Origin: Escherichia phage vB_Eco_F27
Direction: 5' to 3' (one strand)
DNA: 64,000 nucleotides
Sequence record: OP870146.1
Numbering within the stretch: the first letter of the stretch is position 1; each line of letters opens with the position of its first letter. Below the pieces are notes generated by a model, which saw only the letters and a program-made list of their open reading frames with translations, made no database searches and was not told the origin of the DNA. Both the position numbers and the translations under genes were made by a program. Of the stretch, positions 1 to 48,740 are shown in pieces.

Positions 1-2206
1 CCGCTTCCACGGCCTTCATGAATTTAACGATTTGAGCGACCTGTTCTTTGGAAAGAGTACCACGTCGTCCCATGTAGTCTGACACAATATGATAATTGGT
101 TTCGAATTCAATAACCATTTTATCATCATTATCGTAAGCATTATCTTTAAGCTTATCGAAAATTTTAGCACACAATTCTAACTTCTTATTCAGGTCTCGG
201 TTAGTAGCACCTGAGAATCGATTCCATCCCCAACGATTATTTACTGTTGAAAGTTTTGCAAAGTCTTTACTGATTTCTTTGTTCTTAGAGCTAAAATACT
301 TACTAAGGAAGTTAAGCTCTTCATTACGAGTAATATGATTCAAATAAGGCTGTGCTCTACGACTTGGTGATACATACTCATCATAATCCACTTTATCAAT
401 TAGCGTAATATAGTCATTAATTGATTTTTCGAACAAGCATTCTACTTCACCAAGTTTACGAACTTTCTTAGCAATCTGTGGACGGACTACAGTGAACTCT
501 TTAATACCTGACAAATCAGCAATACGGGTCAAGAAATTGGAGTCATAGTTCAACCAACCTTTATCTGCGTCAAGACATTCAGCATTAGAACGATTACGAA
601 CTATAGCATAACCTTGGATTTCATCAGCTTCACTCGCTGGAATAAAGAGATCTTCTGATACCCAAACATCGTTTTCATTCTTAAAGAACCGATGAGCACT
701 TGGGGATTTAGGACGAGGCCCATTAGAACGAGTCTTGACTTCAATCCATGGCTTAACGATTTGTAAAAGCTCTGAAGTCTTGTACATGTTAATGTTGTCG
801 CCATCAAAGATAACTTTAAGGCGTTCCAGAAGTTTCATTGCATCTTCGTCTGTGGGGTCAACGAATAGTACGCTTTTACCAAAACCGCGTGGAACTTTAC
901 CGGTTAATTTAACCTCGTCTTTAGACATTTCAATTGAATTAAGAGCTCGCATTAATGGAACGCGTCCCTTAACGTCATCAATAACAATTTCAACGTTTTT
1001 AATGTTAATGCCAATCAGACTGTTAATTGAAATAGTTGCCGATGAGCTTCCGCTTTCACGAATACGACGAAGTCGTGGGTCTGAAACGATATCATATACA
1101 ACACCAAGGTTGCACCATTCAGGTCCCATTTTAAAACGTTTGTACAACTCGGAATAAGTTAGTTGTTCTTTAGAGTATTTCAGTGATTCAATATTAGACC
1201 CAGCCTTTTCCATGTATTTACGAGCGGTATAGCCAAGAGAATCAATTTCACGGAACACATGACGTGGGTATTTACAATCAATCCATTTCTTAGAATCTTC
1301 AGCGAACAATTTAGCATCGATTTCTGCAACGCGTTTATGGATATTTGCTACTGTACGTTTATCAAACGACAATGCTTCACGAGACGGGGCCACATCTAGT
1401 TCACCCATAGGGAATTTAATATAAGCTGTAGTGCATCGCGTCATCATCCATGTTTGTTCTTTAATAACACTTCCAATTGGATATACAATACCACCATAAA
1501 CAGCCATGATATTACCACGTTCACCCCATGGAGCTTCCTTGGCCAAATATACATCGTCAAATTCTGGGAAGTATTTAATATCTTTAACACCGCGAACTTC
1601 TGCAATATCACCTAGAGGACGCATAACATATGCAATTTCGGATGCGAACTTTTCAAAATCTTCCGGGTTAACCGGTACAACTACTTCTACACCCGTACGG
1701 TCATCAGGACCCATCTTATCTACGAAGGTTGGCTTAATCTGTGGACCACTGTCATCTTGATAAATTACATAACCACGAACTTCACCATTGTGATAAGACG
1801 TAAGGTTAAACGTATCAGTATATGCTAGCGGAGCTTTAGAACCGAGTCCGAATCCACCAATGAAATCGTTACTCGATGTTTTAGTTGAAGCAAAATATGA
1901 GTTATAAATTCCTGGCTCTTCGTCATTACCTCGAATGGTGAAATCGCTCATACCAGGACCAAAGTCTCGAACTACAAAACGTGGGTCTAAACGACCTGGT
2001 GCCTGAACAATAAACTTATCAGTGCAACCATTAAGAATTTGCCCATCGATACAGTTTGTGATTAATTCACGTACACAAGCCAATTCTTTATTTGTATAAA
2101 GGTCATTAGACAAAATCTTATAAACTTTGCTATTGCCTTGAATAGTGAATGCTGTGCTCTTACCGCCTGAACCAATAATCGTTTCTTTAGCCGTTTCAAT
2201 AATCAT
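1..2206 (-). CDS. rIIA: rIIA protein, partial (C-terminus lies beyond window start)
   Basis: Open reverse-strand frame from ATG at 2204-2206 (MIIETAKETIIGSGGKS...DFGPGM...) to the window edge, >735 codons; not in ORF track because it has no in-window stop; position next to gene 39 as in T4. Confidence 0.8.
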   Translation of the reverse strand, partial: MIIETAKETIIGSGGKSTAFTIQGNSKVYKILSNDLYTNKELACVRELITNCIDGQILNGCTDKFIVQAPGRLDPRFVVRDFGPGMSDFTIRGNDEEPGIYNSYFASTKTSSNDFIGGFGLGSKAPLAYTDTFNLTSYHNGEVRGYVIYQDDSGPQIKPTFVDKMGPDDRTGVEVVVPVNPEDFEKFASEIAYVMRPLGDIAEVRGVKDIKYFPEFDDVYLAKEAPWGERGNIMAVYGGIVYPIGSVIKEQTWMMTRCTTAYIKFPMGELDVAPSREALSFDKRTVANIHKRVAEIDAKLFAEDSKKWIDCKYPRHVFREIDSLGYTARKYMEKAGSNIESLKYSKEQLTYSELYKRFKMGPEWCNLGVVYDIVSDPRLRRIRESGSSSATISINSLIGINIKNVEIVIDDVKGRVPLMRALNSIEMSKDEVKLTGKVPRGFGKSVLFVDPTDEDAMKLLERLKVIFDGDNINMYKTSELLQIVKPWIEVKTRSNGPRPKSPSAHRFFKNENDVWVSEDLFIPASEADEIQGYAIVRNRSNAECLDADKGWLNYDSNFLTRIADLSGIKEFTVVRPQIAKKVRKLGEVECLFEKSINDYITLIDKVDYDEYVSPSRRAQPYLNHITRNEELNFLSKYFSSKNKEISKDFAKLSTVNNRWGWNRFSGATNRDLNKKLELCAKIFDKLKDNAYDNDDKMVIEFETNYHIVSDYMGRRGTLSKEQVAQIVKFMKAVEA

Positions 2207-45411: not shown

Positions 45412-45882
45412 TTAATCATGTTTCCACACCCCATCGGTATTTGACCAAAGTCGCTGATTATCTGATCCTCGCCACAGCTTTTTAGTCGGAAGATTTTTCT
45501 CATACTTCCCATCAATAATAACATCAACATATTTAAGCATTTCTAGTTGTTTAATATCTTCAAACTTATATCCTGTCCACAACCAAATGCTTTTATTGGG
45601 ATAAAGATTTTTTACTGTTTGAACAATGCAATGAATAACATCTCGGTTATCAGGATAGAGAGGGTCACCTCCGGTTATAGTTAATCCTTCTATATAATCA
45701 TTATTCAAACATTCAATTAATTGTTCTAGTGTTTCACCAGTGAATGGAACACCATTTCTAGCATTCCATGTTGATTTATTATAACACCCTTCGCATTTAT
45801 GCAAACAACCCGTAACGAAAAGAACGACCCTGCATCCAGGGCCATTCACAAAATCGCAAGGATAAAATCTATCATAATTCAT
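45412..45882 (-). CDS. nrdG: anaerobic ribonucleotide reductase activating protein (radical SAM)
   Basis: CLHKCEGC CxxxCxxC motif near N-terminus; 156 aa. Confidence 0.93.
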   Translation of the reverse strand: MNYDRFYPCDFVNGPGCRVVLFVTGCLHKCEGCYNKSTWNARNGVPFTGETLEQLIECLNNDYIEGLTITGGDPLYPDNRDVIHCIVQTVKNLYPNKSIWLWTGYKFEDIKQLEMLKYVDVIIDGKYEKNLPTKKLWRGSDNQRLWSNTDGVWKHD

Positions 45883-47158
45883 TGGTGTTTAACCCTATGC
45901 ATGATTTCTTTATTTTTACCGAGATTAAATCCGCGTTCGTTCGGATTTCCCAAATAACCACATGTTCTTCTTATTGTGTTCATCTTTTTAGGATCAGTTT
46001 CTCCACAAATAGAACAAACAAATCCGTTTTCAGTAGGAGTCATTTCATGGGTACTTCCACATGTAAAACATTTATCTACTGGCATATTAACACCAAAATA
46101 ATCTAAATGTTGTGCAGCATAATCCCATACGGCCTCAAGGCCTTTCAAGTTATTTTTCATATCAGGAAGTTCAACATAAGAAATGTGACCACCTGTCGCA
46201 ATGAAATGATATGGCGCTTCACGAGAAATCTTTTCAAACGGAGTAATATTTTCTTCTACTGAAACATGGAAACTGTTAGTGTACCAACCTTTATCGGTAA
46301 CATCTTTTACGCTTCCATATTTTTCTGTATCAAGTTTACAGAAGCGGTAACAAAGGTTTTCAGCAGGAGTAGAATACAAACTAAAAGCAAATCCAGTTCT
46401 TTCGGACCACTGTTTAAGATGAGCATTCATTTTAGTTAAAATTTCTTGCCCAATATCACGACCGACAAGAATATTCAATTCGTGAATACCAATGTATCCT
46501 AAAGACACTGAACTTCTACCGTTTTTAAATAACTCAATTATGTCGTCATCAGGTTTAAGACGAACCCCGAATGCACCTTCTTGGTAAAGAATAGGAGCAA
46601 CAGTCGCTTTAACACCCTTTAAAGAACTAATTCTACACATCAAGGCTTCAAAACACAGATCCATTCGTTCATTAAACAATTCGATAAATTTCTGTTCATT
46701 GAACTGTGTTCCAATATAAGAATCTAATGCGATACGAGGAAGATTCAGTGTTACAACACCAAGATTATTACGTCCATCAAGAATTTCATTACCGGTTGAA
46801 TCTTTCCACACACTCAAAAAACTGCGGCAACCCATTGGAGAAACAGGAATAGATGAGCCGGTGATAGCTTTATTGTTCTTAGCTGAAATAATATCAGGAT
46901 ACATTCTTTTGCTTGCACATTCTAACGCAAGTTGTTTAATATCATAGTTCGGATCATCTTTATAAAGATTAACACCTTCTTCAACAAACATAACAAGTTT
47001 AGGAAAAATAGGAGTTATTCCATCACGACCAAGGCCTTTAATGCGGTTTTTAAGAATTGCCTTCTGAATCATTCGTTCAGTCCAGTCAGTTCCCGTACCA
47101 AATGTAATTGTTACAAAAGGCGTTTGACCGTTTGAACTGAAAAGTGTATTTACTTCAT
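45879..47158 (-). CDS. nrdD: anaerobic ribonucleoside-triphosphate reductase, exon 2
   Basis: C-terminal glycyl-radical motif RRTCGYLG and Zn site CFTCGS...CSICG; joins exon 1 to give 605 aa. Confidence 0.88.
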
Positions 47159-48202
47159 CATTATATTCAGCATGAGTCGCAAATTCATGCCCGTTTATAT
47201 GAAACAACAAAATTTGGATAGTCCATAGATATGCAACGTTCTTTTATAGTGCTAGGATGAAAATTTAGCGCTTTAGCTGCTTCTATATAAGACGTATACT
47301 TAATACCGTCAACAACCACATATTCAGGAACTTTATGAATAGTAGTCTTAATACTCAAAACAAGAGGATGAGTTTCGACTTCACTTTCAGTGCAATTTAA
47401 ATATTCCGCTGCTTTTTTAAAACTTCTAAAAGTTTTATTTTTAAGCTTTATCGATACTTGTTTTTTACTTTTTCGACTATTGATATTATTTTGCACATGT
47501 TCCTTAGATCTTCCGTTTTTAGCATAATATTCAGCTACAGAAGATTTTATATTGTTTTTATGAGATTCGGATAACACTTTACCCTTATGAGCATCTCTTA
47601 ATTTTTGAATATGTTCTTCAGTATCCGGATGCTTATAAAACTTTTTACCGCCTATGGATTTATTTAAACATTTTTTGCTATAAAAATATTTACGTATGAC
47701 CTCTTCTTCATGTTTTAATGCATCTTTATAACTATCAAATGTTTTTAAAATTATCCATTTAGTAGGTGTATCAGTTTTTAAGCGTTCATTTATATACTTA
47801 GATGACGTTGTGTAAGTTTTCCAGTTTGTGGGCTTGTTTTTAATTGTTCTAAATTTTTTATAACCGATATAAATGTCGCCATTAGAAAACTTAACTAAGT
47901 ATGTAAATGCGTCTTTATCTTTTATTTTAGTACAACGTCTTTTATCCATTTCATTGTTTCACCTCGTATTCATAAGATAATCTTATTTATACAAGATGAC
48001 TGCTGCATGTCGCCATGCAGATTAGACTATATCTTCATCTTTCGATGCCGGTCGTTTCGAATAGCATTAGCTTCTATTCTACACCGCTACATTCATCACG
48101 GTTAGTCGTTAGGCATTTAGTTCAAAAGAACATTTAGCACGGGATTGTCTACTAGAGAGGTTCCCCGTTTAGACCGGTTTTACATGAGCCTGAATTAAAT
48201 TA
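47159..48202 (-). mobile_element. group I self-splicing intron in nrdD carrying a homing-endonuclease ORF
   Basis: nrdD frame interrupted for 1044 nt; exon 1 ends in U, intron ends in G; joining restores ...AFQAYE-YEVNTLFSS...; untranslated structured segment 47950-48202 then HEG ORF. Confidence 0.8.
47185..47949 (-). CDS. GIY-YIG homing endonuclease (I-TevII-like), intron-encoded
   Basis: N-terminal TYLVKFSNGDIYIGY GIY-YIG module; basic C-terminal DNA-binding repeats; lies inside nrdD intron. Confidence 0.75.
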   Translation of the reverse strand: MDKRRCTKIKDKDAFTYLVKFSNGDIYIGYKKFRTIKNKPTNWKTYTTSSKYINERLKTDTPTKWIILKTFDSYKDALKHEEEVIRKYFYSKKCLNKSIGGKKFYKHPDTEEHIQKLRDAHKGKVLSESHKNNIKSSVAEYYAKNGRSKEHVQNNINSRKSKKQVSIKLKNKTFRSFKKAAEYLNCTESEVETHPLVLSIKTTIHKVPEYVVVDGIKYTSYIEAAKALNFHPSTIKERCISMDYPNFVVSYKRA

Positions 48203-48740
48203 ACTCATACGCCTGGAACGCGTCATAGACATCTTTTTCTGTTTTAGATTGAGCATAATTCAACGCATCAGCGATTTGCCATTTTTCTGCATCTTCAACA
48301 TGTTTAGCGTATGTGCGTTTAACATAAGGAGAAAGTACTTTATCGACATTCGCAAATGTAGTTCCGCCATACTGGTGTGAAGCAACTTGTGCAGTAATTT
48401 GTGCCATAATTGCAGTAGCAACGCCAATAGATTTAGGCGTTTCAATTTGAGCATTGCCTAATTTAAATCCATTCTCAAGCATCCCCTTTAAATCGACCAA
48501 ACAGCAATTAGTAAACGGAAGAGCAGGAGAATAATCAATATCATGCATGTGAATGATTCCGCTTTCATGCGCATTCATAATAAAAGACGGGACCATATTT
48601 TTGGCAATGTGCTTAGACACAATACCAGCCATAAGGTCCCGTTGAGTTGGAAAAACACGAGAATCTTTATTAGCATTCTCGTTCAAAAGATCTTTATTAG
48701 TTTTATGAATTAATCCTTCAATTTCTTTTTCAATTTTCAT
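48203..48740 (-). CDS. nrdD: anaerobic ribonucleoside-triphosphate reductase, exon 1
   Basis: MKIEKEIEGLIHKTNKDLLNENANKDSRVFPTQRDL...; in-frame stop 2 codons after splice point. Confidence 0.88.

Follow-up and report, generated by a model that had tools for sequence, protein, structure and literature searches.

Predicted group I intron of a diverged, apparently mosaic lineage splits nrdD of Escherichia phage vB_Eco_F27

The window analysed here is a 64,000-nt stretch of record OP870146.1, which derives from a T4-like phage (Tequatrovirus), Escherichia phage vB_Eco_F27; the closest complete genomes share 96–97% identity with it over 24 kb. In this window, the genes of the nrdD region lie on the minus strand, with gp49 and nrdG as neighbours (Table 1). 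The nrdD reading frame continues after AYE with Leu and Ile and then meets a TAA stop (48197–48195), two codons after ...AFQAYE. It resumes 1044 nt downstream in a second NrdD ORF that contains EVNTLFSS. Removal of nucleotides 48202–47159 (1044 nt) leaves 538 + 1280 nt, which translate into a 605-aa NrdD with the junction ...AFQAYE-Y-EVNTLFSS, the Tyr codon being split T/AT. U48203 is the final base of exon 1 and G47159 the final base of the intron, while exon 2 opens with AUGAAG. The expected ligated sequence reads ...GCGUAUGAGU/AUGAAGUAAA... (also written GCGUAUGAGU/AUGAAGUAAAUAC; the slash marks the junction), and the boundary is unambiguous because a shift by one base alters the ligated sequence.

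The ligated junction is matched as a single gapless 300-nt stretch of ~95% identity in 615 phage records, and the exons are ~95% identical to those of T4. Further, the spliced protein aligns without gaps over residues 1–605 to the crystallised T4 NrdD (PDB 1H78). Thus, the interruption two codons after ...AFQAYE, the resumption at EVNTLFSS, and the 605-aa product of splicing after U48203 with G47159 as the last intron base, all read from the letters in an earlier note, are borne out by translation, by the intronless records, and by the structure-bearing homolog. The same holds for its untranslated structured part of ~250 nt, as intron nt 1–248 form the untranslated 5′ part that holds the ribozyme core, followed by the 254-aa ORF.

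Table 1. Features of the nrdD locus in the analysed window
Feature	Position	Strand	Remarks
gp49, endonuclease VII	49210-48737	minus	neighbour gene
nrdD N-terminal ORF	48740-48195	minus	ends ...AFQAYELI*
nrdD exon 1	48203..48740	minus	codons 1-179 + first base of Tyr180; ORF, Pfam NRDD match, T4 nrdD alignment
P1 5′ strand AUGAGU	48208-48203	minus	last six exon-1 bases; U48203 at 5′ splice site
Predicted group I intron, IA2-like, 1044 nt	47159..48202	minus	Rfam RF00028; ends in omega-G 47159
Intron nt 1-29			best match T4 nrdD intron, 79%
In-frame UAA in P1 loop	48195..48197	minus	T4 has UAA at same codon
Internal guide sequence GCUCAU (P1 3′ strand)	48184..48189	minus	G48189·U48203 wobble; same in T4 intron
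Ribozyme core	48003..48177	minus	hand-drawn helices, covariation
P3	48177-48172/48053-48048	minus	
71-nt block, intron nt 30-100	48103..48173	minus	P4-P5-P6-P6a, J6/7, P7 5′ strand
P4	48168-48164/48143-48139	minus	
P5	48158-48156/48150-48148	minus	short, 3 bp
P6	48138-48137/48114-48113	minus	
P6a	48131-48128/48123-48120	minus	
P7	48107-48103/48029-48025	minus	
Intron nt 101-165			best match Aeromonas phage terminase intron, 67%
P7.1	48102-48099/48086-48083	minus	ACCG/CGGU
P7.2	48079-48074/48064-48059	minus	GAAUAG/CUAUUC
P8	48047-48044/48039-48036	minus	
P9	48020-48014/48009-48003	minus	
SD-sequestering hairpin	47959..47999	minus	11-bp outer + 6-bp inner stem; hides SD GAGGUG 47965-47960
T4 late-promoter consensus TATAAATA	47984..47991	minus	in SD hairpin 5′ arm + loop
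Canonical endonuclease start codon	47952..47954	minus	5 nt after SD; out of frame here
I-TevII-like GIY-YIG/NUMOD1 homing endonuclease ORF, 254 aa	47185..47949	minus	from second ATG, 10 nt after SD
A4 run, 1-nt deletion	47940..47943	minus	A5 in all 43 database relatives
3′-terminal hairpin GGCAUGA/UCAUGCU (P9.2-like)	47169..47191	minus	fold; overlaps ORF stop UGA 47187-47185
Candidate P10, exon 2 +2 to +5 UGAA	47154..47157	minus	with intron nt 9-12 UUCA, 48194-48191
nrdD exon 2	45879..47158	minus	remainder of Tyr180 to residue 605 + stop; includes glycyl-radical domain
NrdD C-terminal ORF	ends 45879	minus	contains ...EVNTLFSS...
nrdG	45882-45412	minus	neighbour gene

The Rfam model Intron_gpI (RF00028) matches 48234–48003 over model positions 1–253 with 73.1 bits, compared to a gathering score of 50. 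This match, the sole one in the window, is far beyond chance, with E-values of 3e-18 in a local scan and 1.2e-16 over the whole 64 kb. The covariance search proposed as a check in the earlier note depends on its settings: the whole-window scan at gathering settings and default filters returned no match, whereas laxer filters and the local scan recover the intron. Hence, the empty default scan reflects filter loss and not the absence of an intron. Rfam's placement of P1 and P2 was dropped, as its alignment locates P1 within exon 1 and cannot be reconciled with the splice site. We assigned P1 with its U·G pair by hand instead, and the entire P1–P9 structure is hand-drawn. The proposed test of P1 and P10 pairing came out in part: P1 is present with the U·G wobble at the 5′ splice site, while the candidate P10, as read from the sequence, comprises only 4 bp, compared to 3 bp in T4. 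A candidate P9.0 of only 2 bp covaries, pairing AU in J7/9 with AU before omega-G here and AA with UU in T4; neither of these pairings is long enough to decide the matter.

The P2 hairpin is absent from the structure, and two extra helices, P7.1 and P7.2, follow the 5′ strand of P7 and precede the 3′ strand of P3. This arrangement is the hallmark of subgroup IA2, and both helices covary across relatives. Covariation was assessed in an alignment of five phage introns, comprising the nrdD intron of this phage, those of T4 nrdD, phi92-like nrdD, and the Aeromonas phage terminase gene, and an ORF-less td intron. Over these five, 93.6% of the cells of the P1–P9 structure, P3/P7 pseudoknot included, are paired, and 23 of 53 pairs carry compensatory changes with both sides altered. 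None of 500 shuffles reaches these values, and sliding the partners by 1–3 columns lowers pairing to 31–41%. In comparison with the T4 intron, P3, P6a, P7.1, P7.2, and the 3′-terminal hairpin are fully compensated; in T4, the terminal hairpin is formed by GUAGAG/CUCUAC at the corresponding position. The exon base at −2, opposite C48188 in P1, is G in 10/10 intron-containing alleles and A in both intronless alleles examined. The only window-specific substitution, G to A at 48052, turns a G·U pair of P3 into A-U.

Taken together, a group I intron with an I-TevII-like endonuclease ORF very probably splits nrdD at the T4 sunY site, and splicing and mobility would account for the locus as a whole. 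The UAA in the P1 loop would halt ribosomes arriving from exon 1 after they have read two codons of intron sequence. The pre-mRNA is predicted to fold into P1, formed by exon AUGAGU and guide GCUCAU with the U48203·G48189 pair, and into the P3–P9 core with P7.1/P7.2. Free guanosine would then attack after U48203, and the terminal G47159 would next occupy the G-site, so that the exons are ligated into an mRNA for the 605-aa NrdD. This splicing chemistry is established for the group I class; for the present intron, we infer it from the structure.

A competing view of the interruption as such takes it for a relic that does not splice or for the insertion of a free-standing endonuclease. In this case, nrdD would be a pseudogene or would encode two assembling polypeptides, comparable to nrdA of Aeromonas phage Aeh1, which is split by mobE. 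Intronless split RNR genes do exist in phages (PMC3653736), and GenBank relatives of this locus annotate two NrdD fragments without a join, both of which count for it. However, the ribozyme core is complete and carries compensatory changes, the splice-site nucleotides are canonical, and the exon frames fit to the nucleotide. Moreover, exon 2 has neither a start codon nor a ribosome-binding site at the junction, and derivatives that lost the homing endonuclease gene (HEG) have retained exactly the core plus the 3′ tail. We therefore consider a non-splicing insertion the least probable of the explanations weighed here, with hardly any chance of being correct.

The ORF within the intron, whose product is exactly WBF80344.1 of Escherichia phage vB_Eco_F27, shows 56% identity to T4 I-TevII over 252 aa. 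It passes the Pfam cutoffs for SegE_GIY-YIG (PF19835; 26.7 versus 25, marginally) and NUMOD1 (25.3 versus 22.8). With I-TevII, it shares the conserved motifs FTY...IYIGY, ALKHEE, and LNKS, including the Glu and Asn of ALKHEE...LNKS. A comparison of the protein with PDB sequences found no homologue. The GIY-YIG ORF of 254 aa named in the earlier note is thus present; what had been missed is a 1-nt deletion that lies behind its length of 254 rather than the consensus 256 aa. By analogy with I-TevII, the endonuclease would cut intronless nrdD shortly after the start of exon 2, at an expected distance of about 13–15 nt, and repair of the cut would copy the intron and short exon flanks into the intronless gene. 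Both the cleavage position and autoregulation are assumed here from T4 I-TevI and I-TevII, to the latter of which the protein is 56% identical.

Upstream of the ORF, the Shine–Dalgarno (SD) sequence is enclosed in a hairpin with a folding energy of −17.3 kcal/mol (z = −5.7), a stability equalled by 0/200 shuffles. The T4 intron has an equivalent hairpin. The TATAAATA element, which T4 also contains, carries a late-promoter annotation in the relative SA20RB, and control by a late promoter combined with a hairpin over the ribosome-binding site (RBS) has been described (PMC2988022). In this phage, early transcripts would have the endonuclease RBS locked in the hairpin; late transcripts would start inside the hairpin and lack its 5′ arm, and therefore the RBS would be free late in infection. 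The longest stretch identical to T4 is the 19-nt TATGAATACGAGGTGAAAC, which resembles the exon junction. A likeness between the junction and the upstream sequence was noted for T4 by Loizos et al, as summarised in PMC3984707. Here, the junction and the sequence upstream of the ORF agree at 13/17 positions, a score reached by 73/500 shuffles (T4: 10/500). We rejected an operator-like resemblance on these grounds, as it is not significant in this phage and only suggestive in T4.

The start of the endonuclease gene deviates from the rest of its family. The sequence ATGAAATGGATAAAAAGACG is present in all relatives in the database (43/43), whose endonuclease has 256 aa and starts MKWIKRRCTK..., whereas an A5 run is shortened to A4 in this phage. 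Because of this deletion, the canonical ATG is out of frame and the ORF comprises 254 instead of 256 aa. ATG 47954 opens only a 10-codon ORF, MKWIKDVVLK*. An intact reading frame does not begin at the canonical start codon of the family; it is open only from ATG 47949, which yields MDKRRCTK... and is identical to the 256-aa consensus from residue 4 on. The second AUG is spaced 10 nt from the SD and is traversed by ribosomes that initiate at the first AUG, which is more favourably placed.

A single missing base in an A-run that is A4 in 0/43 GenBank relatives might point to a homopolymer error of sequencing or assembly, in which case the phage would encode the normal 256-aa enzyme. In contrast to this expectation, the exact 254-aa product recurs in four further independent assemblies (two Logan SRA, one NCBI assembly, and one ENA metagenome contig), all of which read GGATAAAAGACG. 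Moreover, over 24 kb compared with phage JK45, A4 is the only uncompensated 1-nt indel in a CDS, while the other four isolated 1-nt indels are all intergenic, a pattern that random errors would not give. On the strength of the four assemblies and the JK45 indels, we rejected such an error, which we rate as very improbable, as the cause of the frameshift. The A4 allele is real.

In two of the other assemblies, the A4 intron differs at 1 position in 1044 nt, while the exons differ by 124 and 38 bases. The occurrence of A4 across several backgrounds indicates either that the allele is still mobile or that slippage recurs. With low certainty, the sequence suggests that the endonuclease is still made from AUG 47949 at a reduced level; a −1 slip on A-AAA-G is a speculative further route that would restore the frame. 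From the A4 allele, the enzyme may be produced inefficiently or even not at all. In the latter case, the endonuclease gene of this phage would be dead and the intron an immobile but still splicing element at the first step of decay, with A4 spread by repeated slippage or homologous recombination. This possibility deserves serious consideration, although we hold it to be somewhat less probable than its opposite. It gains from the canonical AUG at optimal SD spacing being out of frame and opening a 10-codon peptide, from a homopolymer run that is prone to slippage, and from the decay visible elsewhere in the lineage, where HEG deletions have left introns of 479 and 345 nt and ORFs are split into 57+189 and 123+130 aa. 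Yet the ORF remains open after the shift and there encodes the consensus protein unchanged, an in-frame AUG follows 5 nt downstream and changes only MKWIK to MD, and the presence of the A4 intron, with 1 difference per 1044 nt, in nrdD backgrounds up to 124 nt apart is explained more easily by continued mobility. Whichever applies, the A4 allele leaves the splicing function of the intron unaffected.

The predicted intron shares its overall architecture with the T4 nrdD (sunY) intron, to which it is colinear from P1 to omega-G (1033 nt in T4, 1044 nt here). Both are inserted at GAGU/AUGAAG within Tyr180 and have the same P1 guide sequence, no P2 hairpin between P1 and P3, P7.1/P7.2, and the entire core upstream of the ORF, with UAA at the same P1-loop codon. 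They also agree in the late promoter, the SD-sequestering hairpin, the 19-nt TATGAATACGAGGTGAAAC, and a 3′-terminal hairpin over the ORF stop, and their endonucleases are homologous over the full length. In contrast, the cores are only ~72% identical (56–91% by segment), with most helices altered by compensatory substitutions. P4–P6 is of the td type here, and the hairpin loop is 9 nt longer. Compared to I-TevII, the endonuclease is 56% identical as protein and ~60% as DNA (by eye), and its canonical start is frameshifted. Thus, the T4 sunY arrangement cited in the earlier note stands with respect to site and layout, with one refinement: the intron belongs to a distinct, diverged, and apparently mosaic lineage of the T4 nrdD element and is not the T4 intron itself.

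The mosaic character resides in the core. An exact-match scan finds its 71-nt block 100% identical to the td intron of phage CJY920, which has no ORF. The block also matches the T4/T6 td intron in two identical pieces, 42 + 17 nt, which flank the position of I-TevI. The segments on either side have their best matches in other introns (Table 1). This pattern fits an exchange of ribozyme domains between td and nrdD introns in either direction. Laboratory precedents for exchange between T4 introns are reportedly those of Hall, Liu and Shub in 1989 and of Bryk and Belfort in 1990.

The T4/T6 td intron, which encodes I-TevI, and the CJY920 td intron belong to the same subgroup as the nrdD intron described here. 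The identity to CJY920 extends over 71 nt from P4 to the 5′ strand of P7 and includes P6a, GUUCUUUUGAAC. T4 td likewise combines a GIY-YIG endonuclease with control by a late promoter and a hairpin. The td introns differ in host gene and in P1/P2, and their P7.1–P8 segment is only 42% identical; in T4 td, the I-TevI ORF is located in the P6a loop and not after P9, and the alignment gives I-TevI an identity of only 24%. The nrdD introns of phi92-like phages (Justusliebigvirus) reside in the same host gene and have a related IA2 core, with nearly identical P7, J8/7, and P9 and a 3′ segment of 94%. However, they are inserted before the Cys codon in ...SMG/CRSF..., lack an endonuclease gene, and carry a long P6a extension. 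A shared insertion site with these introns was rejected, as the phi92-like site differs.

Four states of nrdD are found in the databases. At least 43 GenBank phages carry the diverged lineage at full length, with 97–98% identity over intron plus flanks, and two phage records carry it with large internal HEG deletions that reduce the intron to 479 and 345 nt. DNA of the T4-type endonuclease occurs in 25 records, most of them T4 strains and about half T4 itself, and 615 phage records are intronless. The T4 type also includes the U5 nrdD sequence AY262145 (Sandegren & Sjöberg, 2004). With 43 full-length and two deleted copies, the diverged lineage outnumbers the T4 type among sequenced phages; in the T-even-like phages sequenced, it is the nrdD intron met with more often.

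Among the at least 43 GenBank phages, the lineage introns are ~99.7% identical, while their exons differ by 5–7%; the intron differs at 1–3 of 1044 nt between phages with 38–124 differences over the 1818 nt of the exons. Exon-2 positions +1 to +22 are common to all lineage copies, as are the last 12 bases of exon 1 with the exception of one HEG-deleted derivative, L010. Synonymous markers at −11, −8, −2, +14, and +20 are present in the lineage and missing from intronless alleles; L010 keeps only −2 of the markers −2, −8, and −11. Outside the shared flanks, the exons are mosaic. The G at −2 also completes P1. A near-invariant intron in divergent exons, together with shared flank markers, indicates recent homing with co-conversion, as far as can be read from the sequences.

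Alongside the intact copies, the lineage contains decayed ones. Internal frameshifts occur in phages F1 and 236Ecol005PP, ORFs split into 57+189 or 123+130 aa are present, and large deletions are found in 215Ecol030PP and BYEP01; the core and the 3′-terminal hairpin are retained by both HEG-deleted derivatives. Homing endonucleases pass through a cycle of gain, decay, and loss in the model of Goddard and Burt. The present lineage parallels this cycle in that near-identical introns in divergent genomes occur alongside copies with a start frameshift, an internal frameshift, or a large deletion; the order of events is inferred here and not dated.

These observations can tentatively be joined into one reading, which we put forward as a possibility with somewhat less than an even chance. 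The lineage would have arisen by domain shuffling, either through entry of a td-type P4–P6/P7 block into an nrdD scaffold or through the reverse transfer, which would have created ORF-less td introns. Its 56%-identical I-TevII-like enzyme would compete with that of T4 for the homing site, and the A4 allele may still be mobile via the neighbouring AUG or a −1 slip. If true, a "broken" endonuclease gene would still be spreading.

The element class has been studied thoroughly, the insertion site is known, and dozens of genomes with it have been deposited. Current understanding is unchanged; only the mosaic core and the start-codon frameshift go beyond expectation. The diverged lineage itself seems unstudied, as a search of the accessible literature library found no paper describing it. 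The main value of the analysis lies in annotation. GenBank copies are usually annotated as two NrdD fragments and a homing endonuclease or hypothetical protein; a joined 605-aa CDS with an intron and a homing endonuclease should replace the two "NrdD" fragments and the "hypothetical protein". Beyond this, the lineage and its T4 counterpart offer a natural pair of diverged enzymes for one target site; the lineage also makes successive stages of endonuclease decay visible and seems to have exchanged a ribozyme domain with the td intron.

The core of the nrdD intron contains a block of 71 nt that is 100% identical to the ORF-less td intron of phage CJY920. This block includes the P6a hairpin GUUCUUUUGAAC, which in the CJY920 td intron takes the place of the I-TevI ORF. 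The identity suggests that td and nrdD introns have exchanged a domain, which may have moved in either direction.

Only one intron base is unique to the genome of the window, a G to A change in the 3′ strand of P3, which replaces a G·U wobble by an A-U pair and thus preserves the structure. In P1, the G at exon position −2 pairs with the intron guide sequence. This G (GAG) is found in all ten intron-containing alleles examined, T4 included, and both intronless alleles examined (loci L007 and L008) carry A (GAA).

The default Rfam gathering scan over window 1-64000 missed this 73-bit group I intron, while a local or e-value scan detects it. Negative results of the fast mode are unreliable for introns with large insertions.

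Coordinates of the features discussed (window positions unless a comparison locus is named)
Feature	Location	Strand
Block identical to td intron	48103-48173	-
ORF-less td intron, phage CJY920	L013:1500-1665	
Base unique to the window (P3)	48052	-
Exon position −2	48204	-
phi92-like nrdD introns	L011:399-676; L014:399-644	
Fragmented nrdD, Vibrio phage F97	L015, about 1375-2130	
nrdD/nrdG overlap (ATGA)	45879-45882	
1-base differences to phage JK45	40963; 44337; 44384; 49247	

Related ORF-less IA2 introns also interrupt nrdD in phi92-like Justusliebigvirus phages, whose nrdD halves are annotated as separate proteins in GenBank. In contrast to the window, however, they are inserted before the Cys codon of ...SMG/CRSF.... 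The nrdD of Vibrio phage F97 is likewise fragmented and accompanied by an HNH endonuclease ORF. A core segment at this locus shares 73% identity with the P6-P8 region of the window's intron. Phage F97 thus probably carries a further intron in nrdD, whose endonuclease belongs to a different family.

Downstream, nrdG directly adjoins nrdD. The free-standing endonuclease gene found at this boundary in other phages (mobC in T4, SegH in HY03) is absent from the window. The isolated single-base length differences to phage JK45 are all intergenic, and two of the four (40963 and 44384) lie in homopolymer runs.

Within the intron lineage itself, the GIY-YIG endonuclease gene is mostly deleted in two copies, 215Ecol030PP and BYEP01, leaving introns of 479 and 345 nt that retain the core and the 3′ tail. 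Moreover, frameshifts split the gene into 57 + 189 aa in phage F1 and 123 + 130 aa in phage 236Ecol005PP. Together, the deleted and frameshift-split endonuclease genes form a series of decay states.
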